Source: an uncultured bacterium (lineage in GTDB: Bacteria > Patescibacteriota > Saccharimonadia > Saccharimonadales > Saccharimonadaceae). From it: 40,000 bases of DNA. Location of the stretch: NCBI GenBank assembly GCA_965649685.1, contig CBFGLU010000001.1, forward strand, positions 1 through 40,000, read 5' to 3'. Both the position numbers and the translations under genes were made by a program. Under the pieces are notes generated by a model. The model saw only the letters and a program-made list of their open reading frames with translations, was not told the DNA's origin and ran no database searches. Positions 1 through 10,059 of this stretch are shown here, in pieces (position 1 is the first letter of the stretch; every line of letters starts with the position of its first letter).

Positions 1-1715
1 ACAAGTACGGCGTGCCTCGTATCTGCTTCATCAACAAGATCAACCAGACCGGTGGTGACTTCTACAAGTCGCTTGAAACCATTCACACCCGTCTTTCGAA
101 GCATGCGTTGCCAGTCCACTTGCCAATCGGCTTTGAGAAAGACATCAACGGTGTCGTCGACCTGATCGACATGAAAGCCTACACTTACTCGGACTACACC
201 GACAAGGCACTGGTTCCTGGTGACATCCCAGCCGACATGCAGGAAAAGGCCAAGAACGCCCGTAGTTTGCTGGTTGAAGCTGCCGTTGAAGCTGACGACG
301 AACTGATGATGCGCTTCCTCGACGAGGGCGAAGACGCTATCACTACCGACGAGCTGAAGAGCGCGCTACGTAAGCGTATCCTTGCTGGTGACTTCTACCT
401 GGTAACCGGTGGTGATGGTCGTGGTGTGATCGTCGAGAAGGTTCTCGACCTCGTCAGCGACTTCCTGCCGAACCCACTTGACGTAGGTGACACCTGGGGT
501 GTGAATCCTAAGTCTGGCGAAGAGATCAGCCGCAAGCCTGACGCCAGCGAGCCGATGGCCGGTATCGCCTTCAAGATCGCGACCGACCCATTCGTCGGTA
601 AGCTGATCTTCGTCCGTGTCTACTCTGGCACCCTGAAGGCCGGCTCATATGTTCTGAACACCACTACCGGTGAAAAGGAACGTGTCGGACGTATCGTCCG
701 TATGCACGCCGACAAGCGTGAAGACATCGATGAGATCAAGGCTGGTGACATCGCCGCCGTCGTAGGTCTGAAGAGCACCTTCACCGGTCACACCCTTTGT
801 GACGTGGCTAACCCGATTGCACTCGAAAGCATCACTTTCCCAGAGCCACCGGTCGCCATCGCCGTCGAGCCAAAGAGTAAGGCCGACCAGGAAAAGATGG
901 GTATCGCCCTCGGTCGTCTGGCTGAGGAAGACCCTACCTTCCGCGTTCACACCGACGAAGAAACCGGCCAGACCATCATGTCCGGTATGGGTGAGCTGCA
1001 CCTCGACATCTTGATCGACCGTATGAAGCGCGAGTTCAAGGTCGAGGCGAACATCGGTGAGCCACAGGTCGCCTTCCGCGAATCTATCAAGGGTACCAGC
1101 CAGGTTCAGGGTAAGCACGCCAAGCAGTCCGGTGGACGTGGCCAGTACGGTGACGTCTGGGTCCGCTTCGAGCCGAACGAGCCAGGCAAGGGCTTTGAAT
1201 TCTTCGACGAGATCAAGGGTGGTGTGGTTCCGCAGGAATACCGTATGCCGGTCATGAAGGGTATCAAGGATACGCTCGATAGCGGTGTGATCGCCGGCTA
1301 TCCAGTAGTCGATGTGAAGGCGACCCTGTACGACGGTAGCTATCACGACGTCGACTCAAGTGAACTGGCCTTCAGCCTGGCTGGTAGCCTGGCCGCCCGC
1401 GAAGGTGTCAAGCAAGCCAATCCTGTACTGCTCGAGCCTGTCATGCGCGTCGAGGTCACTACTCCTGAGGAATTCATGGGTGATGTGATCGGCGACCTTA
1501 ACTCTCGTCGTGGCCGTATCGAGGCCATGGAAGACCTGGCTGGTGGTGCCAAGCTGATCAAGGCCTTCGTGCCACTCGCGCAGATGTTCGGTTACACCAA
1601 CGACATCCGTTCGATGAGCCAGGGTCGTGCCGCTTCTACCATGGAGCTGGCCCAGTACGAGGAAGTACCACCGAACGTTGCACAGGAGATCATCGAGAAG
1701 CGGGCAAGCAAATAA
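1..1715 (+). CDS. fusA: Elongation factor G, 5'-truncated by the window edge (about 570 C-terminal codons present)
   Basis: The frame is open from the window edge (..KYGVPRICFINK..) to TAA at 1713-1715. EF-G hallmarks are present: IAFKIATDPFVGKLIFVRVYSG, GELHLDILIDRMKREF, GSYHDVDSSELAF. A terminator follows. Confidence 0.95.
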   Translation, partial: KYGVPRICFINKINQTGGDFYKSLETIHTRLSKHALPVHLPIGFEKDINGVVDLIDMKAYTYSDYTDKALVPGDIPADMQEKAKNARSLLVEAAVEADDELMMRFLDEGEDAITTDELKSALRKRILAGDFYLVTGGDGRGVIVEKVLDLVSDFLPNPLDVGDTWGVNPKSGEEISRKPDASEPMAGIAFKIATDPFVGKLIFVRVYSGTLKAGSYVLNTTTGEKERVGRIVRMHADKREDIDEIKAGDIAAVVGLKSTFTGHTLCDVANPIALESITFPEPPVAIAVEPKSKADQEKMGIALGRLAEEDPTFRVHTDEETGQTIMSGMGELHLDILIDRMKREFKVEANIGEPQVAFRESIKGTSQVQGKHAKQSGGRGQYGDVWVRFEPNEPGKGFEFFDEIKGGVVPQEYRMPVMKGIKDTLDSGVIAGYPVVDVKATLYDGSYHDVDSSELAFSLAGSLAAREGVKQANPVLLEPVMRVEVTTPEEFMGDVIGDLNSRRGRIEAMEDLAGGAKLIKAFVPLAQMFGYTNDIRSMSQGRAASTMELAQYEEVPPNVAQEIIEKRASK

Positions 1716-1843: not shown

Positions 1844-2554
1844 ATGAAAACGAAACGAACATTTATCATTCCTGCACTCGCCATGCTGCTAGTGATGGGT
1901 TTGACCGTGCCAGCCTTGGCCCACGAAGGTTCAGACGATACGGTTGTCAGCAATGAGATTGAAACCGAAACTGAAGTTACGACCGGTACGGATGACTCCA
2001 CGATCTCGATCAAGGCTGACGACGACAAGCAGACGAGGCTACAGCGCCAAGCTGAGCGCATCAAGGAGCGTCGAGCGGCCATAGAAGCGAAGCTGGCTGA
2101 GCGTAGGGCCGAGCACAAGGAGCGTCTTGAGGGACGTCGCTTGGCCACGTGCGAGAACCGTGAGCAGCGTATTAACCAGCTGCTTGATAGGAGTGCAGAG
2201 AACGGCAAGCGCCATCTGCAAGTCATCCAGCGGATCGAAGAAGGTATAAAGAAGTTCTACCATGATAAGGCGTTGTCGGCCGATGGGTATGACGCTGCAC
2301 TTGCTGCGGCTGATGAGAGAGAAGCTGACGCTGTAGCGGCTCTTGACGTACTGTCAGACGTCGATTTCGACTGCGCGAATGCGGATGGCCAGAAGCCGGC
2401 CGCCGTGATCGCCTCGGCGGTCCATCAGCGGCACGACGCCCTGAAGGCCTACCGTACGACCGTGAAAGACCTCCTATTGGTCGTGAAGAAGTCGCTGAAC
2501 GATAAGGCCGGAACCAGTACGGACGAGGCTACGAAGCAGGATGGGGAGGTATAG
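1844..2554 (+). CDS. Secreted coiled-coil protein of unknown function (236 aa)
   Basis: SD gaaggaag lies upstream. N-terminal signal peptide MKTKRTFIIPALAMLLVMGLTVPALA/HEG. Charged helical region (RLQRQAERIKERRAAIEAKLAERRAEHKERLEGRR) and two Cys. No family recognised. Confidence 0.75.
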   Translation: MKTKRTFIIPALAMLLVMGLTVPALAHEGSDDTVVSNEIETETEVTTGTDDSTISIKADDDKQTRLQRQAERIKERRAAIEAKLAERRAEHKERLEGRRLATCENREQRINQLLDRSAENGKRHLQVIQRIEEGIKKFYHDKALSADGYDAALAAADEREADAVAALDVLSDVDFDCANADGQKPAAVIASAVHQRHDALKAYRTTVKDLLLVVKKSLNDKAGTSTDEATKQDGEV

Positions 2555-2556
2555 CC

Positions 2557-2814
2557 ATGCGAAGCTATAAGGGATTCTCGATCGTTGAACTTCTGGTCAT
2601 CGTGGGTGTACTGGTATTGATCGGTGGGCTCGGCTTCGTCGCCTGGAAGTCATTCAACAAATCAGCGAACGAGAACGGTACTCCTGTCTCGAATAGTCAG
2701 ACCGCCGAAGTCATAACGACCGAGGAAGATCTGAACGAAGCTGCCAAGCAGCTTGATCAGTTGGATATTGAAGACGAAGACAGTCAGCAGGCCGAAAGCC
2801 AGGCTACGTTTTAG
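2557..2814 (+). CDS. Truncated type IV pilin-like protein (85 aa): prepilin-type N-terminus plus acidic tail
   Basis: Strong SD ggggagg 7 nt upstream. The start is 2 nt after the preceding stop. MRSYKG/FSIVELLVIVGVLVLIGGL fits the class III signal (G/F cleavage, Glu at +5). The remainder is short, acidic and has no globular head. Confidence 0.7.
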   Translation: MRSYKGFSIVELLVIVGVLVLIGGLGFVAWKSFNKSANENGTPVSNSQTAEVITTEEDLNEAAKQLDQLDIEDEDSQQAESQATF

Positions 2815-2820
2815 CAAGAC

Positions 2821-2849
2821 TTGTCCGACAACGGCATAAGCGGTATCAT
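2821..2849 (+). promoter_or_regulatory. Candidate internal promoter in front of cyoA (TTGTCC-17-TATCAT)
   Basis: TTGTCC at 2821-2826, 17-nt spacer, TATCAT at 2844-2849. The ATG at 2860 is only 10 nt downstream and has no SD. Confidence 0.4.
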
Positions 2850-2859
2850 GTAACCACGT

Positions 2860-3750
2860 ATGAAACGTTTCGTGGGGGTGATGATACCGCTTATTATCAT
2901 CGGAGCTTTAGTGATCGGCGGTATCGCGCTCGTGAGCGGAGCTTCGATCGATGCGCTTGATCCAGCCGGTCAGATCGCCGCTCAACAGCGAAAAGTCCTT
3001 ATCCTGACGTTGTTTCTGAGCTCGCTCGTCGTCGTACCGGTATTCACGATGCTTATCGTGTTTGCCATCCGCTACCGTGCGAGCAACCACCGGGCCGAAT
3101 ACCGGCCCGAATGGGGTGAGAATAAGCTGCTGGAAGGTCTTTGGTGGGGTATCCCGATCGCCATCATCGGCGTGCTAGGTGTGGTAACGGTAGTGACGAG
3201 TCATAGCCTCGACCCGTATAAACCGATTGCCAGTGATAAGTCCACGTTGGAAGTGCAGGTCGTCGCTATGCAATGGAAATGGCTGTTCATCTATCCTCAA
3301 TACGACGTCGCGACGTTGAATTACCTGCCGGTAGAGGTTGATCGGCCGATCCATTTCACCCTGACGGCTGACGCACCGATGAGCGCCTTCTGGATTCCGA
3401 AGCTAGGCAGTCAGATTTACGCCATGAACGGCATGCAGTCGGAACTGAACCTGATCGCGAACAAGACAGGTAGCTTTACCGGCTATACTACCAATATCAA
3501 CGGTGAAGGCTACGCCGACATGACCTTTACGCTTAGGTCATATTCGACCGATGATTTCAACGCCTGGCGCAGGCAGGCGAATGCCGTGCCGGCACAGATT
3601 GACTCGCAGACCTACGAGACATTGTCGCAGCCGACCATCGACACCAAACTCCGTACGTATCGCCTGGCGGAAGAAAATCTCTTTGCTACCATAGTGCATG
3701 AACGTATGGATCATTCACACGAACAAATGAAAACCGGAGGGGGACATTGA
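2860..3750 (+). CDS. cyoA: Cytochrome o/bo3-type quinol oxidase subunit II
   Basis: Close to E. coli CyoA as recalled (LDPAGQIAAQQRKVLILT, YRASNHRAEYRPEW, FWIPKLGSQIYAMNGMQSELNLIA). The protein has no cysteine at all, so there are no CuA ligands. This marks a quinol oxidase rather than a cytochrome c oxidase. Confidence 0.9.
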   Translation: MKRFVGVMIPLIIIGALVIGGIALVSGASIDALDPAGQIAAQQRKVLILTLFLSSLVVVPVFTMLIVFAIRYRASNHRAEYRPEWGENKLLEGLWWGIPIAIIGVLGVVTVVTSHSLDPYKPIASDKSTLEVQVVAMQWKWLFIYPQYDVATLNYLPVEVDRPIHFTLTADAPMSAFWIPKLGSQIYAMNGMQSELNLIANKTGSFTGYTTNINGEGYADMTFTLRSYSTDDFNAWRRQANAVPAQIDSQTYETLSQPTIDTKLRTYRLAEENLFATIVHERMDHSHEQMKTGGGH

Positions 3751-5726
3751 TGAACGGTTTCTTCGAATTTCTGATCGGCCGTCTGTCACCTGAGTACTTC
3801 CCGCAGGATCCCGTTACCATAGGGGCTGCGGTCGGCATGCCATTGACGGTGTTATTCATCGCCGGTCTCATAACCTACCTAAAACGCTGGACGTGGCTAT
3901 GGAAGGAGTGGTTGACATCACTGGACGCAAAGAAGATCGGTGTCATGTACGGCATCGTGGCTATCGTCATGTTGCTACGAGGACTGGCGGATGCCGGTAT
4001 GCTGCGACTGCAGACGGCGCTCAGTGCCGGTGATGCCAGCGGGCCGTTCAGTACCGACACCTTCCAGCAAGTATTCACCGCCCATGGCACCATTATGATC
4101 TTCTTCGTGGCCATGGGTCTGATGTTCGCACTGATCAACGTGGTCATGCCGCTCCTCATCGGCGCCCGTGACATGGCGTTTCCTCTGATGAACTCGATCA
4201 GTTTCTGGCTGTTCGCAGCCGGCATGGTATTGATTAACCTGTCGCTACTGTTCGGTGGCTTCTCGAATGCCGGTTGGCTGGGGTACCCACCGTTGACGGA
4301 GTTGGAGTACAACCCAGGGCCTGGCGTCGACTATTGGATATGGTCGCTCCAGATCGCCGGTATCGGCAGCCTGTTGTCCGGAATCAACTTCTTCGTGACG
4401 ATATTGAAGCACCGCGCACCTGGCATGACCATGTTCAAGATGCCGATCTTCCCGTGGAGCGTCCTGGTGACCAGCGTGCTTATCATGCTGGCGTTCCCGA
4501 TCCTGACGGTGACCTTGGCTCTCCTTAGTCTCGACCGTACCATGGGGATGCATTTCTTTACCTCCGACTTGGGCGGGAATCCGATGCTCTACATCAATCT
4601 CATATGGGCGTGGGGTCATCCTGAGGTGTATATCCTGGTACTGCCGGCCTTCGGCATCTTTTCGGAAGTCGTGGCCACGTTCTGTCGCAAGATGCTGTTC
4701 GGTTACCGCACCATGGTCTATGCCTTGATCGCCATCATGCTCCTGTCGTTCATCGTGTGGCAACATCATTTCTTCACCATGGGCGCGGGAGCGAACGTGA
4801 ACGCGTTCTTCGGCATCATGACCATGGTCATCGCCATTCCGACCGGTGTCAAGATCTTCAACTGGCTGTTCACGATGTATCGGGGCCGTATTACGTTCAG
4901 CGCGCCGATGATCTGGTTCTTCGCGTTCGTGGTTACCTTCACGATCGGAGGTGTCAGTGGCGTCATGATGGCCGTGCCCGCGCTCGACTTCCAAGTACAT
5001 AACACGATGTTCCTGGTCGCACACTTCCATAACGTCATAATCGGCGGCGTGGTGTTCGGCTTTTTCGCGGGCATTACGTATTGGTTCCCGAAGGTCTTCG
5101 GCTTCCGTTTGCACGACCGTCTGGGGCGATGGTCGGCCTATGCCTGGCAGCTCGGTTTCATCCTGGCGTTCATTCCGCTCTATATCCTTGGCCTGATGGG
5201 TGCCGTACGCCGGATCGACGACTATAGCGACCCATCGTGGCTACCGTTCTTCATCGTCTCCGGTATCGGCGTGATGGTGGTGGCGTTAGGAGTGGGACTG
5301 TTCTTATTACAAGTGGCTTACAGCATATGGAAGCGCAAGGAGCTGCGTGACACCACCGGTGATCCTTACGACGGCCGTACACTTGAATGGTCGGTGCCGT
5401 CGCCCGCGCCGCACTACAACTTTGCGGTCATTCCGACCGTGACCGAGCGGGATGAATGGTGGTACCGTAAGCAGGCGAAAAAGACCCGGTTGGCACGTGA
5501 TGAGTACAAGGATATATGGCTGCCGAAAAACAGCAGCGTCGGGCTGACCGTAGGCATCTTGTCGGGATTATTCGGATTTGCGATCATCTGGCATCTCTGG
5601 TGGTTGGCGTTGATCTTGCTGGTAGCCGTGGTAGTGGTCATCATTCGTCGGACCCTCGACGATAACGGCGAGTACCGCATTACCGCACAAGAGCTGTACG
5701 AGGAAGCGAACGGAGGACTGGCATGA
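3750..5726 (+). CDS. cyoB: Cytochrome o/bo3-type quinol oxidase subunit I (heme-copper oxidase)
   Basis: Long runs match E. coli CyoB as recalled: YINLIWAWGHPEVYIL, HHFFTMGAGANVNAFFGI, AIPTGVKIFNWLFTMY, HFHNVIIGGVVFG, LLRGLADA. SD ggaggggg lies upstream. The ATG at 3750 overlaps the cyoA TGA. The ORF track starts 3 nt earlier at a TTG. Confidence 0.95.
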   Translation: MNGFFEFLIGRLSPEYFPQDPVTIGAAVGMPLTVLFIAGLITYLKRWTWLWKEWLTSLDAKKIGVMYGIVAIVMLLRGLADAGMLRLQTALSAGDASGPFSTDTFQQVFTAHGTIMIFFVAMGLMFALINVVMPLLIGARDMAFPLMNSISFWLFAAGMVLINLSLLFGGFSNAGWLGYPPLTELEYNPGPGVDYWIWSLQIAGIGSLLSGINFFVTILKHRAPGMTMFKMPIFPWSVLVTSVLIMLAFPILTVTLALLSLDRTMGMHFFTSDLGGNPMLYINLIWAWGHPEVYILVLPAFGIFSEVVATFCRKMLFGYRTMVYALIAIMLLSFIVWQHHFFTMGAGANVNAFFGIMTMVIAIPTGVKIFNWLFTMYRGRITFSAPMIWFFAFVVTFTIGGVSGVMMAVPALDFQVHNTMFLVAHFHNVIIGGVVFGFFAGITYWFPKVFGFRLHDRLGRWSAYAWQLGFILAFIPLYILGLMGAVRRIDDYSDPSWLPFFIVSGIGVMVVALGVGLFLLQVAYSIWKRKELRDTTGDPYDGRTLEWSVPSPAPHYNFAVIPTVTERDEWWYRKQAKKTRLARDEYKDIWLPKNSSVGLTVGILSGLFGFAIIWHLWWLALILLVAVVVVIIRRTLDDNGEYRITAQELYEEANGGLA

Positions 5727-6304
5727 GCGAAGCTGAACGCCTGATGAAGCGAGAGAAGGCAGAGTACGGCTTCTGGCTTTACCTCATGACGGATCTGATA
5801 CTGTTCTCAAGTCTGTTCGCTACCTACGTCATCCTGAAGCACAACACCGTCGGTGCCGGAACTGCCGCGGAACTGCTCGATCCGACTTACGCGCTTATCC
5901 TGACTATCGCACTGCTTACCAGTAGCTTCACGTCGGGCGTGGCTGCCGCCGCGTTCAACTTCGGCATGAAGCGACTCGGTCTCGGGCTTGTCCTGGCCAC
6001 GGTTCTTCTCGGTCTGACGTTCCTGGGCCTGGAACTGGCGGAATTCGCCCATTTGGTGGCGGAAGGTGAGTCGTGGCGTGAGAGTGCCTTTCTCTCCGCG
6101 TTCTTCACTCTTGTCGGTACGCACGGGTTGCACATCACCGTCGGTCTGATCTGGGCGCTGACTCTCATGGTCTACATCATGAAGCGGGGCTTGACGCATA
6201 ACGCCATGCGTAAGTTCGCGCTCTTCACGTACTTCTGGCACTTCCTGGACATCGTATGGATCTTCATCTTCGCGGTGGTATATCTCGCGGGAGGACTGGC
6301 ATGA
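5723..6304 (+). CDS. cyoC: Cytochrome o quinol oxidase subunit III
   Basis: ATGA overlap with cyoB. Five-TM protein with the C-terminal motif FWHFLDIVWIFIF typical of subunit III. Confidence 0.9.
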   Translation: MSEAERLMKREKAEYGFWLYLMTDLILFSSLFATYVILKHNTVGAGTAAELLDPTYALILTIALLTSSFTSGVAAAAFNFGMKRLGLGLVLATVLLGLTFLGLELAEFAHLVAEGESWRESAFLSAFFTLVGTHGLHITVGLIWALTLMVYIMKRGLTHNAMRKFALFTYFWHFLDIVWIFIFAVVYLAGGLA

Positions 6305-6672
6305 ACGGGTTGGATCGAGAATTCAAGAAGCTGCTGGCCGTATATGTGATCGGTTTTGCCGCCGCGTTGCTGCTGAGCGTGGTGAGTTATCTGATGGTGA
6401 TGGACGGATGGTTCGCGACCGACTGGATGACGATGATAGCCTTACTGGTGCTAGCAGTCATTCAGCTTGTCATTCAGCTCGTCTGCTTCTTGCATCTGCG
6501 GCCAGACCGAGACGCCTTCTCACGGACCGGTACCTTCATCTTCGCCGTCGGAACGGTTTTGATCATCGTGGTTGGTTCGATATGGATCATGAAGAACCTT
6601 GATTATCGTATGCATATGACACCGGAATCGATGCTCAAGTATATGTCGGAGCAGAACAAGAAAGGCTTTTAA
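6301..6672 (+). CDS. cyoD: Cytochrome o quinol oxidase subunit IV
   Basis: ATGA overlap with cyoC (ATG at 6301). 123-aa three-TM protein in the conserved cyoABCD position. The 6256 start in the ORF track overlaps cyoC and is not favoured. Confidence 0.8.
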   Translation: MNGLDREFKKLLAVYVIGFAAALLLSVVSYLMVMDGWFATDWMTMIALLVLAVIQLVIQLVCFLHLRPDRDAFSRTGTFIFAVGTVLIIVVGSIWIMKNLDYRMHMTPESMLKYMSEQNKKGF

Positions 6673-6675
6673 GGG

Positions 6676-7545
6676 ATGATAGGCGATTACTACCGGTTGA
6701 CGAAGCCGGGTATCATCAAAGGTAACCTTATTCATGTGCTGGCCGGCTTGTTGTTCGCCCATGCCTATGGATTCTCGTGGCAAGCGGTAGTGGGGGTCGT
6801 CGCCGGTACGGTGCTTATCATTGCTTCGGCCTGCGTGGTAAACAATTACACCGACCGTGGTATTGATGCACGCATGAAGCGGACCAAGACCCGCGCGTCC
6901 GTCACCGGAGCCGTCACGCCGCGTAACGCCATGCTGTTCGCGACCGTTCTGTTTGTGGCCGGCATGACTCTTTTAATTAGCCTGACAAACCTGCTGGTCG
7001 TCATCATCGGGCTGGTGGCGTACGTCTTTTACGTCTTCATCTATGCGGTCGCCAAGCGTACCACGGTGCACAGCACGCTTGTCGGCGCTATTCCGGGCGC
7101 GTTGCCGGCGATGGCAGGGTATGTGGCGTTGAGCGGTCGGCTCGATCTGGCCGCATGGTTGATCTTCCTGCTCGTCCTGGTATGGCAGATGCCCCATTTC
7201 TATGCCATCTCTATCTTTCGGCGCGATGAATACAAGGCGGCCGGCTTACCGGTGTTGGGTGTCGTCAAAGGCTTTGACCAAGTACGCTGGCATATGGGCG
7301 CGTACCTGGCGTTATACGTGCTTGTCGTACTGCTTATCATCGTCAGCGGATCGATCAATCTGCTGGGCGGTGCCGTGTTGCTCATGGCCGCGTTGTATTG
7401 GGTGAGGGCGTACCTACGACCGGTTCATGACCAAGTCAAATGGGCAAAAACGGTTTTCGGTACGTCGTTGCTATTGACGATGACATTGTTGCTCGCGGTC
7501 GCACTCGATGCTGTGACTCCCGGGCTGACTACGTTACAATGGTAA
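6676..7545 (+). CDS. cyoE: Protoheme IX farnesyltransferase (heme O synthase, UbiA family)
   Basis: Polytopic membrane protein with the NNYTDRGIDARMKRTKTRA (NxxxDxxxD) prenyltransferase motif. It immediately follows cyoD. Confidence 0.9.
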   Translation: MIGDYYRLTKPGIIKGNLIHVLAGLLFAHAYGFSWQAVVGVVAGTVLIIASACVVNNYTDRGIDARMKRTKTRASVTGAVTPRNAMLFATVLFVAGMTLLISLTNLLVVIIGLVAYVFYVFIYAVAKRTTVHSTLVGAIPGALPAMAGYVALSGRLDLAAWLIFLLVLVWQMPHFYAISIFRRDEYKAAGLPVLGVVKGFDQVRWHMGAYLALYVLVVLLIIVSGSINLLGGAVLLMAALYWVRAYLRPVHDQVKWAKTVFGTSLLLTMTLLLAVALDAVTPGLTTLQW

Positions 7546-7574
7546 GGAATCAAGAGAGGAACAAACATCACGAC

Positions 7575-8750
7575 ATGACCCATAATCTGAACGTAACCAT
7601 CGTTGGTGGTGGCTTCGGCGGCGTGAAGGCGGCGCTTGAACTGGCCAAGGAGCCCACTGCCCGTATCACCCTGATTTCCGATAAACCTGATTTCCAGTAC
7701 TATCCAGCTTTGTTCGCGACCGCGACGGGTCACAGTCATCGTGAGTCATGGGTGCCTCTGCAAGAAATATTCGCCGGACACAAGAACGTCACGTTGGTGC
7801 AAGACACCATCGAAACCATCGACACGGAAGCGAAGGTGCTGAAGGGCAAGGATGCGTATCATTACGAAGAAGTCATCCTGGCACTGGGCAGCGTGACCAC
7901 CTATTTCGGTATCGAAGGGCTGGATACCTACGCGTACGGCATCAAGTCCCAAGATGAAATCCGACGTCTTCAGCAGCATCTGTGGGATGAAATGAGCGAT
8001 GGTAGCGATGACGAGAAGAACTATGTCATCATCGGGGCCGGACCAACCGGGGTCGAGCTTGCTGGTGCCTTAGGTGAATACCTGCGGACGCTCCGCCAAC
8101 ACTTCGGTATCCGCAAGAAACGGTTACGTATCAGCCTGATCGAGGCGGCGCCACGCGTGCTGCCGCGACTTTCCGAGCATACCAGCAAGGTGGTACACGC
8201 ACGCCTGACGGAGCTCGGCATCCATGTCGAGACCAACAAGAAAGTCGAGCGCCAGACGGCCGACAGCCTGATCGTGAACGGCAAGCCACTGACGACGCAG
8301 ACGGTCATCTGGACTTCCGGGGTGGCCAACGCACCGTTCTACAAGGCGAACGAGGCACAGTTCGATCTGAATGACCGTGGCAAGGTCAAGGTTGACGAGT
8401 TCATGCGATCGAGCGCCCATGTCTATGTCATCGGTGATAACGCCAATACGCCATATGCCGGGCTGGCTCAGACCGCCCTGCACGACGCCATCTTCGTGGC
8501 CAAGCATCTGAAAGGCTCAAAGAAGCCCTACAAAGTGGTGCCGCCGCCGTCGGTCGTACCGGTCGGCCACCATTGGGCCGTATTCGAGTGGGGCAAGCTT
8601 CGCTTCAGCGGCTTACCGGCCGCCTTCATGCGCAGTGCCGCCGATATCATTGGCTATCACGACGTCCTACCCATAGGATGGGCGTTCAAGGCGTGGCGGG
8701 CCCAGTCGATCAAAGAGCTGCGCGTTCCGTCCGCCGTCTCTGACGAATAG
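7575..8750 (+). CDS. ndh: Type II NADH dehydrogenase (NDH-2)
   Basis: Two dinucleotide folds are present: VTIVGGGFGGV near the N-terminus and YVIIGAGPTGVELAG. The start is uncertain. ATG 7575 is preferred, ATG 7539 is possible, and the 7440 start in the ORF track would overlap cyoE by about 100 nt. Confidence 0.85.
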   Translation: MTHNLNVTIVGGGFGGVKAALELAKEPTARITLISDKPDFQYYPALFATATGHSHRESWVPLQEIFAGHKNVTLVQDTIETIDTEAKVLKGKDAYHYEEVILALGSVTTYFGIEGLDTYAYGIKSQDEIRRLQQHLWDEMSDGSDDEKNYVIIGAGPTGVELAGALGEYLRTLRQHFGIRKKRLRISLIEAAPRVLPRLSEHTSKVVHARLTELGIHVETNKKVERQTADSLIVNGKPLTTQTVIWTSGVANAPFYKANEAQFDLNDRGKVKVDEFMRSSAHVYVIGDNANTPYAGLAQTALHDAIFVAKHLKGSKKPYKVVPPPSVVPVGHHWAVFEWGKLRFSGLPAAFMRSAADIIGYHDVLPIGWAFKAWRAQSIKELRVPSAVSDE

Positions 8751-8804: not shown

Positions 8805-8877
8805 TAACCATATTGCGTTGCGAGGTATTTTACGACTGCGCGCTAAATATAACTATTTAAAGGAGAATAAATCTCAA

Positions 8878-10059
8878 ATGGCAGATTTCGACCGAAGCAA
8901 GCCGCACGTCAACGTTGGTACCATGGGTCACGTTGACCACGGTAAGACAACCCTAACCGCAGCAATCACTCACGTGCTTGCCAAGAAGCTTCCAAGCGAC
9001 GTCAACGTTCCTCGTAACTACGAAGACATCGACAACGCTCCAGAAGAAAAGGCTCGTGGTATTACCATCGCCTCATCTCACCAGGAATACGAGTCTGAAG
9101 CTCGTCACTACGCTCACGTAGACATGCCTGGTCACGCCGACTACGTTAAGAACATGATCACCGGTGCCGCCCAGGTTGACGGTGCGATCCTGGTAGTTGC
9201 CGCAACCGACGGTCCATTGCCACAGACCCGCGAGCACGTTCTGCTTGCCAAGCAGGTCGGTGTGCCTAAGATCGTTGTCTTCCTGAACAAGATGGACATC
9301 GCTGACCCAGAGCTCGTTGAGCTGGTCGAAATGGACATCCGCGAACTGCTGGCGAAGAACGGCTTCGACGAAGACGCTCCTATCATCAAGGGTTCTGCGA
9401 CCAAGGCTCTCGAAGGCGACGCTGCCTACGAAGACGCCATCATGGAACTGGTCAAGGCTCTGGACGACTACGTACCTGAACCACCACGCGACATGGACAA
9501 GCCATTCCTGATGCCTATCGAGGACGTCTTCTCGATCAAGGGTCGTGGTACGGTTGCTACCGGTCGTATCGAAACCGGTGTCATCAAGCTGAACGACGAA
9601 GTTGAAATCGTCGGTGTGCGCGATACCCAGAAGTCAGTCGTTACCGGCATCGAGGCCTTCAAGAAGAACCTCGACCAAGGTCAGGCAGGTGACAACGCCG
9701 GTCTGCTGCTTCGTGGTATCGAGCGCGAGCAGATTGAGCGCGGCCAGGTCATCGCCAAGCCAGGTTCGATCACTCCTCACACCGAGTTCGAAGCTGAAGT
9801 CTACATCCTGAAGAAGGAAGAAGGTGGTCGTCACACCCCATTCTCAAAGGGTTACAAGCCACAGTTCTACTTCCGTACCACCGACGTTACCGGTGAGGTT
9901 GAACTGCCAGCTGACAAGGAAATGGTCATGCCTGGTGACACCATCACCTTCGTCGTGAAGCTGCTTGCTCCTATCGCTATGGAGCAGGGTCTGAACTTCG
10001 CGATCCGCGAAGGTGGCCGCACCGTCGGTGCCGGCGTCGTGACCAAGATTACCAAGTAA
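8878..10059 (+). CDS. tuf: Elongation factor Tu
   Basis: [32 protein letters not shown] motifs are canonical (DMPGH, NKMD, SATKAL). SD aaaggag lies upstream of ATG 8878. The 8818 extension in the ORF track is rejected. Confidence 0.97.

Follow-up and report, generated by a model that had tools for sequence, protein, structure and literature searches.

A conserved, cassette-borne redesign of the nucleotide pocket in the elongation factor G of Saccharibacteria and other Patescibacteria

The window analyzed here is a stretch of 40,000 nucleotides from an uncultured bacterium of the family Saccharimonadaceae (assembly GCA_965649685.1, contig CBFGLU010000001.1, positions 1 to 40,000), and it opens inside fusA, the gene for the translocase elongation factor G (EF-G). 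This fusA encodes the housekeeping, single-copy EF-G of a Saccharibacteria bacterium, a member of the Patescibacteria or candidate phyla radiation. The protein is an EF-G orthologue whose base pocket differs: the aspartate of the fourth GTPase motif (G4, NKxD) is replaced by asparagine, and the fifth motif (G5) has gained an aspartate and lost one residue. We show below that this is a real, conserved redesign of the nucleotide pocket of EF-G, carried on a cassette. The NKxD motif counts as a nearly universal signature of GTPases, and EF-G belongs to the most conserved proteins known. We found no description of NKxN in EF-G by full-text searching of the literature, a search whose coverage excludes most subscription journals.

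The open frame runs on the forward strand from position 3 to 1715 and is cut by the contig start, so that the window holds the C-terminal 570 codons and the stop; its translation begins KYGVPRICFINKINQTGGDF. The first 128 or so codons fall before the start of the contig and of the window, and the fragment comprises everything from G4 onwards. The gene was identified with the TIGR00484 profile, the NCBIfam equivalog model of FusA, and by alignment to the EF-G of Staphylococcus aureus (2XEX). The fragment reaches 799.3 bits, the cut-off being 659.4, and spans positions 125–689 of the 691 in the profile. Full-length homologues (86–94% identical) match PF00009, PF03144, PF14492, PF03764 and PF00679, which correspond to the five domains of EF-G (G with G', II, III, IV and V). 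The P-loop (G1) and the DxxG motif (G3) of the window fusA belong to the part before the window start, which the assembly does not contain; the close homologues read AHIDAGKTT and IIDTPGHIDF at these sites in 119 of 120 cases. At the other end of the protein, the tip of domain IV is canonical (H-D-V-D-S-S-E, 1344–1364, forward strand, from the sequence and the alignment to 2XEX).

The differences are concentrated in the base-reading motifs. G4 reads N-K-I-N (Asn11, Lys12, Ile13 and Asn14 of the fragment) at 33–44 on the forward strand in place of N-K-x-D, and the codon at the position of the guanine-reading aspartate (42–44) is AAC, where GAC would encode Asp. The G5 loop at 408–422, on the same strand, reads G-G-D-G-R where G-[ST]-A-[LF]-K would be canonical, with one residue fewer. 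The region around it, T-G-G-D-G-R-G-V-I-V-E, occupies 405–437, with the Asp codon GAT at 414–416 and the Arg codon CGT at 420–422. A single gap in the G5 loop was placed both by HMMER against 2XEX and by MAFFT against 58 canonical EF-Gs of Patescibacteria, and both alignments pair the variant Asp with the G5 Ser/Thr, the following Gly with the G5 Ala and the Arg with the G5 Lys. These results bear out what the sequence-only reading of this DNA had reported, namely an NKIN motif ending in AAC and a diverged G5 region that is one residue shorter, which it had placed at about 399–437, close to our boundaries. Its impression that the rest of EF-G looks functional also holds, since even the fragment reaches 799 bits against the cut-off of 659 and HDVDSSE is kept.

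We compared the variant with canonical EF-G, represented by TIGR00484 and the structures from S. aureus (2XEX), T. thermophilus (1DAR and 2BM0) and E. coli (7N2C). A full-length homologue of the window protein shows about 50% identity over the whole length (E 1e-256). The variant shares with canonical EF-G the five domains, AHIDAGKTT and DTPGH (read in the homologues), the HDVDSSE tip and, in relatives, the place in the operon. It differs in G4, where NKxD becomes NKxN, in G5, where G[ST]A[LF]KN becomes GGDxR[GKTS] with one residue fewer, and in a set of positions that co-vary with these motifs.

The cut at the contig start might suggest an artefact, a pseudogene or a divergent paralogue, but we give such an explanation practically no chance. 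The frame has 570 open codons and passes the equivalog hidden Markov model, and the sequence-only reading's question as to whether orthologues share NKxN receives a clear answer: NK[I]N and GGDGRG occur together in all 120 of the closest database homologues (86–94% identical, 695–699 residues). For the A at position 42, another point that it had wished to see checked, independent data come from Logan contigs of four runs in four studies (root, rhizosphere and soil metagenomes). They cover positions 1–513 and agree with the window at both motifs, in the sense that no difference is listed at 42–44 or 414–416 and that 29 weaker differences in this comparison are not itemized. These contigs extend upstream of position 1, where they read ...QSEQVWRQAE ahead of KYGVPR; therefore, the truncation of fusA is a limit of the assembly and not a broken gene. 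No RNA data set is listed as containing this stretch.

The genome of the window (665 kb in 48 contigs, 95.7% complete) contains no second EF-G that we could find. A tblastn search with a full-length homologue and a search of the genome gave only TypA, LepA, IF2 and EF-Tu, and the tblastn search did not find the missing N-terminus of fusA elsewhere in the assembly. Thus, the second canonical copy that the sequence-only reading had suggested looking for was not found in this 95.7%-complete assembly. Its claim that the change is specific to EF-G and not genome-wide is supported by the other translational GTPases of the genome, all of which keep NKxD: TypA (contig C26) reads NKID, LepA (C39) reads NKVD with SAKT, IF2 (C18) reads NKMD, and EF-Tu is likewise canonical. 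The tuf gene for EF-Tu lies in the window itself, 7.1 kb downstream of fusA (8818–10059, forward strand), and served as an internal control; it matches TIGR00485 with 683 bits and carries NKMD at 9286–9297 and SATK at 9394–9405. In a close relative (genome G037) the gene order is rpoC-rpsL-rpsG-fusA...tuf, i.e. fusA stands in its str-operon place.

To describe the distribution of the variant, we searched 400 species representatives of Patescibacteria, with matches in 393, and determined the motifs of 140 genomes spread over the whole similarity range. NKxN together with [GA]GDxR[GKTS] and the one-residue deletion is found in 74 of the 140, in at least 35 GTDB families and well beyond the class of the window, while 65 carry NKxD and, at G5, G[STA][ASC]x[KR]N. 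Mixed or intermediate forms (NKxD with GGDxR, or NKxN with SAx) are absent from the 140 typed genomes and were not seen among about 270 sequences. Among the 83 best matches, all 47 typed genomes have the variant. Extrapolation through the untyped best matches and family f26 puts its share at roughly 30% of the sampled phylum, with 74 of 393 as the firm lower bound. The variant is carried, for example, by Ca. Minimicrobia vallesae, Ca. Nanosyncoccus and Ca. Mycosynbacter amalyticus. In the wider EF-G/EF-G2 family none of 150 representatives reads NKxN; these were chosen at the 50% identity level, which is too coarse to give the variant clade a representative of its own. An unpublished genome (G154) is counted only in the phylum search and in the HAM1 tallies given below, and no claim depends on it.

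The two motifs do not change alone. We compared 52 variant with 58 canonical sequences column by column, using the numbering of a full-length homologue (P0001). Position 142, the last residue of G4, is Asn in 52/52 variant and Asp in 58/58 canonical sequences. Beside it, Leu/Met141 of the canonical type is replaced by Ile and Arg/Lys143 by Gln/Leu. In and around G5, Cys/Ala264 becomes Gly, Ser/Thr266 becomes Asp, Ala/Ser267 becomes Gly, Asn269 becomes Gly/Lys and Gly271 becomes Ile/Val/Met. Farther away in the sequence, Phe176 is replaced by Ile/Val/Met, position 114, varied in canonical sequences, is Met, and the conserved canonical Tyr34 is lost, with varied residues in its place. Over these 11 columns (34–271) there is hardly any overlap between the residues of the two types. 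Across 35 variant sequences from 35 families, the N, K and N of the motif, the G-G after G4, and the G-G-D and R of G5 (G136, G137, D138 and R140 in fragment numbering) are invariant. A change from Asn (AAY) to Asp (GAY) requires only one transition, and still no half-converted form is seen; therefore, strong epistasis between G4 and G5 is suggested.

The history of the gene differs between its two parts. In a tree of residues 128–400 the variant forms one clade and a single change of state suffices. When this tree is rooted with a Bacillota outgroup, the variant clade lies among canonical Patescibacteria with a Shimodaira–Hasegawa-like support of 99 and a stem of 0.15. The tree of the remaining fusA residues requires eight changes of state and does not recover the variant as one clade, and an approximately unbiased test on this rest of the gene rejects monophyly of the variant (difference in log-likelihood 150, p 0.0126). 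Both types occur within family f19 (five variant and four canonical genomes) and within family f56 (two and one). The identity profiles in f19 are those of a mosaic. All five f19 variants are 87–98% identical to canonical f19 sequences over residues 420–690 and only 53–55% identical over 130–400, whereas against variants of other families they show 78–80% over 420–690 and 64–68% over 130–400.

The limits of the exchanged tract were obtained in genus g57, from a 10-kb comparison of three genomes. The variant genome G037 and the canonical genome G202 are the nearest pair everywhere except in fusA codons 1 to about 420. Informative sites for and against this pairing number 602 and 159 upstream, 77 and 45 in the 3' part of fusA, and 142 and 26 in tuf. 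Within codons 1 to about 420 they number 91 and 249, and G037 groups with the variant genome G150 instead (Fisher p 8e-62). The replaced tract therefore comprises the whole part made up of the G domain, G' and domain II, about 1.26 kb, with a strongly divergent core at about residues 130–400. Inside the tract G037 and G150 diverge as much as they do genome-wide, and on the simplest reading G202 would be the recipient of a canonical tract, although the direction is unproven. A comparison of synonymous sites in f19 was near saturation (third-position identity 28–66%) and did not resolve the tract, in contrast to the three-genome comparison. Judged from the tree, the mosaic identity profiles and the tract mapped in g57, the visible part of the variant cassette in the window occupies 3–818 (forward strand) and contains the last part of the G domain together with G' and domain II, about residues 129–400 of the full protein.

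An assembly chimera was considered as a general cause of the mosaic and rejected: the same pattern recurs in nine f19 assemblies (five variant and four canonical) from six genera, while any single metagenome-assembled genome may still be chimeric. The pocket is thus inherited, and exchanged, as one co-adapted cassette. That one state gives way to the other only when the whole tract is exchanged would be the signature of strong G4–G5 epistasis. The tuf gene is 91–100% identical at the DNA level between backgrounds that carry either cassette. Since both cassettes function in near-identical backgrounds, the variant should need no special partner or metabolite supply. The same swaps therefore argue against an exotic nucleotide, and they do not separate GTP from ATP.

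A model with two paralogues, both types residing in one genome, was also rejected. Eleven genomes gave two or more matches, and among those searched none holds both types; the matches come from genes that contig ends cut in two, apart from a frameshift in G290 and a paralogue of the EF-G2 type in G072. In G290, a member of f19, the variant-type fusA (L200/L206, C2:47845–49552) is spread over two neighbouring frames that meet at about query residue 304, through a frameshift or a sequencing error. The gene is broken in many assemblies, and in eight of the 11 two-match genomes it is split over two contigs at query residues of about 240–340, near the 3' end of the exchanged tract. A likely cause of these breaks is that highly conserved flanks are common to co-occurring populations; such flanks could also be substrates for recombination.

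We infer the geometry of the pocket and the nucleotide that it takes from these patterns and from known GTPases. In Ras-like GTPases the hydroxyl group of the G5 Ser holds the G4 Asp (Ser145 and Asp119 in Ras). The G4 Asp of canonical GTPases accepts two hydrogen bonds, from N1-H and N2-H2 of guanine, and O6 is recognized through the backbone NH of the G5 Ala (PMC11594714, PMC7952092). On balance, we consider it probable that the variant EF-G is still a purine nucleoside triphosphate (NTP) translocase and that GTP is read by a pocket with a relocated Asp. In the variant, the canonical acceptor for N1-H and N2-H2, the G4 Asp, is an Asn, and the G5 Ser/Thr that normally holds this Asp is itself an Asp. 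The G5 Ala is a Gly, the hydrophobic residue after it is deleted, and about six further positions co-vary. The polarity of the pair is thus inverted, with an amide at G4 and a carboxylate at G5. This carboxylate may be supplied from the G5 side at the N1/N2 edge, either in direct contact with the base or by orienting the Asn carbonyl towards it. The factor would still bind and hydrolyze a purine NTP on the ribosome, most likely GTP. The variant state arose once and is probably held by strong epistasis; it reaches new genomes by vertical descent or when homologous replacement exchanges the 5' two-thirds of fusA (G, G' and domain II).

Several observations are consistent with a GTP-reading pocket of this kind. 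About 20% of guanine-binding structures that lack NKxD read N1/N2 by an Asp or Glu from elsewhere (PMC11594714). In these 'D/E plus' binders a carboxylate outside G4 may read N1/N2, as proposed here for the variant EF-G; they belong to other folds and families, and none is a translational GTPase with NKxN. An AlphaFold2 model of residues 9–300 (G and G') of a full-length homologue has a predicted local distance difference test (pLDDT) score of 85, rising above 93 at G4 and G5; the G5 strand-loop-helix is kept in the model, and its best matches are solved EF-Gs with template modelling scores of 0.81–0.85. The alignment of the G5 Asp with Ser/Thr bears on a finding that the sequence-only reading would have taken to refute its own claim, a different Asp in the base-contacting position; this is probably the case. 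Among 27 variant genomes, which represent 27 families, 26 have an EF-Tu with unaltered NKxD and GSA[LT]K, and nucleoside-diphosphate kinase (NDK) is present in the genome of the window (136.6 bits), so GTP should still be the currency of the cell. Guanylate kinase is marginal in that genome, with 24.8 bits in the genome search, 25.5 with the neighbours in frame and 27.1 by hmmscan, against a cut-off of 25.2; the match covers only about 80 residues (C7:16710–16949). The sole exception among the 27 EF-Tu genes (L243, G191:C1:151970–153118) belongs to a family f26 genome whose EF-G reads NKIN and GGDSRS. This EF-Tu lacks the regular NKxD and reads F-I-N-K-F-G-D-A-D, with G-N-A-L-K at G5 where G-S-A-L-K is usual.

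Other points weigh against GTP. The placement of the G5 Asp relative to the G4 Asn and the base is drawn from the alignment and from the Ras-like bond between G5 Ser and G4 Asp, and the N-terminal 128 residues of the window fusA lie outside the sequence read. Engineered Asp-to-Asn changes strongly lower the affinity for GTP (cited in PMC7952092). The only experimental case in which the G4 Asp is lost and an acid is gained in G5, that of SpoIVA and of Era with NSxR and SAE, leads to a preference for ATP (PMC7952092). Finally, a re-wiring that is purely neutral has to cross a stage in which the factor works badly, and this speaks for a shift in function of some kind.

The main rival reading is a translocase driven by ATP, or by both ATP and GTP, in which the G4 Asn would donate to adenine N1 and the G5 Asp would accept from the N6 amino group. 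We regard this as possible at a rather low probability. Its precedent is the work of Ramamurthi and colleagues on SpoIVA, a GTPase of the TRAFAC class turned ATPase, which is without the G4 Asp and has gained an acid in G5, as in the variant EF-G; likewise, Era in which NKxD is changed to NSxR and SAx to SAE hydrolyzes ATP and has lost its GTP specificity (PMC7952092). The shortened, Gly-rich G5 loop could shift the backbone NH groups that normally select O6. Both ATP and GTP are present in every cell, which would make cassette swaps between near-identical genomes tolerable, and fixation is easier to understand as an adaptive shift than as neutral drift across an intermediate that works badly. 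However, the correspondence with SpoIVA is incomplete. SpoIVA reads NSxR, with the Lys lost and the acid two residues downstream of the Ser position (SxE), whereas the variant EF-G, a member of a different protein family, retains the Lys and the first Asn of G4 and has its acid in place of the Ser. The resemblance would be one of principle, and the argument for ATP is one of analogy. Moreover, the guanine-type EF-Tu in 26/27 variant genomes speaks against a general shift away from GTP.

A pocket specific for xanthosine or inosine triphosphate (XTP or ITP), like that of engineered Asp-to-Asn GTPases, is the switch that the sequence-only reading had proposed by analogy to EF-Tu D138N. A single Asp-to-Asn change turns Ras, EF-Tu and adenylosuccinate synthetase to xanthine nucleotides (cited in PMC7952092), and the Asn at the G4 Asp position is indeed what the variant has in common with EF-Tu D138N and Ras D119N. 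The analogy is incomplete beyond this residue: the engineered mutants keep a canonical G5, whereas in the variant the Asn always occurs with a compensating Asp, a Gly and the deletion in G5, as the natural, conserved state of an essential gene. The sequence-only reading had listed the G5 change only as a divergence, and the Asp in it is a coupled change. The metabolism of the cell also fails to support XTP. HAM1/RdgB destroys ITP and XTP. Profile searches of the genome of the window found neither this enzyme (PF01725), an absence that would favour such a pocket, nor IMP dehydrogenase (PF00478), the route to XMP, in a 95.7%-complete assembly. The HAM1 profile matched 14/14 control genomes and 190/401 sampled Patescibacteria, and a cross-tabulation made by hand from the list gave 27/52 variant and 28/58 canonical genomes, the same share; HAM1/RdgB was thus rejected as a marker of non-canonical purine use. 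With no route to XMP found and an enzyme that destroys XTP and ITP in half of the variant genomes, and given that reliance of an essential, abundant factor on a trace nucleotide is implausible, we consider this reading very improbable.

A relaxed pocket that reads the base weakly and takes any abundant purine NTP would express itself in kinetic effects, such as a faster release of the nucleoside diphosphate, rather than in a new specificity. A single carbonyl or amide at G4 in place of a bidentate carboxylate and a flexible, Gly-rich G5 loop would fit such a pocket, as would the general properties of EF-G, which requires no exchange factor and has a low affinity for nucleotides. We nevertheless find it improbable, since at least 35 families share the N, D and R without exception and half-converted forms are not seen, which points to a precise and constrained geometry. 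A rebuilt pocket that reads GTP by the relocated Asp remains our preferred reading.

A large bacterial radiation, with cultured Saccharibacteria (such as Ca. Minimicrobia vallesae and Ca. Mycosynbacter amalyticus) among its members, has the variant as its sole, essential EF-G, and this variant presents a different solution to base reading. If GTP is still used, it would be a natural, compensated re-design of a nucleotide pocket and a clean case of sign epistasis that is resolved only by exchange of a cassette. Should the variant run on ATP or another purine, textbook accounts of the energy spent on translation would change for part of the tree of life. The translocase of about 30% of Patescibacteria, including cultured, human-associated Saccharibacteria, might run on ATP or equally on ATP and GTP; we put this forward tentatively, as the less expected outcome. 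It would then be the first case in nature of a translation elongation factor with an altered nucleotide currency, borne on a cassette of about 1.2 kb that passes between lineages by homologous recombination. The pocket also sets the EF-G of the variant carriers apart from the host factor and from the EF-G of other bacteria.

Downstream of fusA, a terminator-like hairpin (GTCACCCGTC...GACGGGTGAC) with a run of T after it was read by eye at 1743–1775 on the forward strand, 28 nucleotides past the stop. This inverted repeat would set fusA apart from an inserted block of about 7 kb that lies between fusA and tuf (1844–8750) and forms a respiratory island in the str/S10 ribosomal gene region of the 665-kb genome. 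The block begins with three open reading frames without a Pfam match: one at 1844–2554, a prepilin-like frame of 85 residues at 2557–2814 and a membrane protein of the size of subunit II at 2860–3750. Subunit I of a haem-copper oxidase (3747–5726; PF00115, 487 bits) and subunit III (5723–6304) follow. A UbiA-family prenyltransferase at 6676–7545 may be a haem O synthase, and a Pyr_redox_2 flavoprotein at 7440–8750 may be NDH-2-like. In genus g57 the spacer between fusA and tuf (5975–8470 of L248 in G037, in the orientation of fusA, compared with L249 and L250) shows 35–76% nucleotide identity with long gaps and is the least conserved stretch of the 10-kb region, whereas both flanking genes are 85–100% identical. 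The fusA–tuf spacer thus seems to be a variable insertion site, in g57 as in the window.

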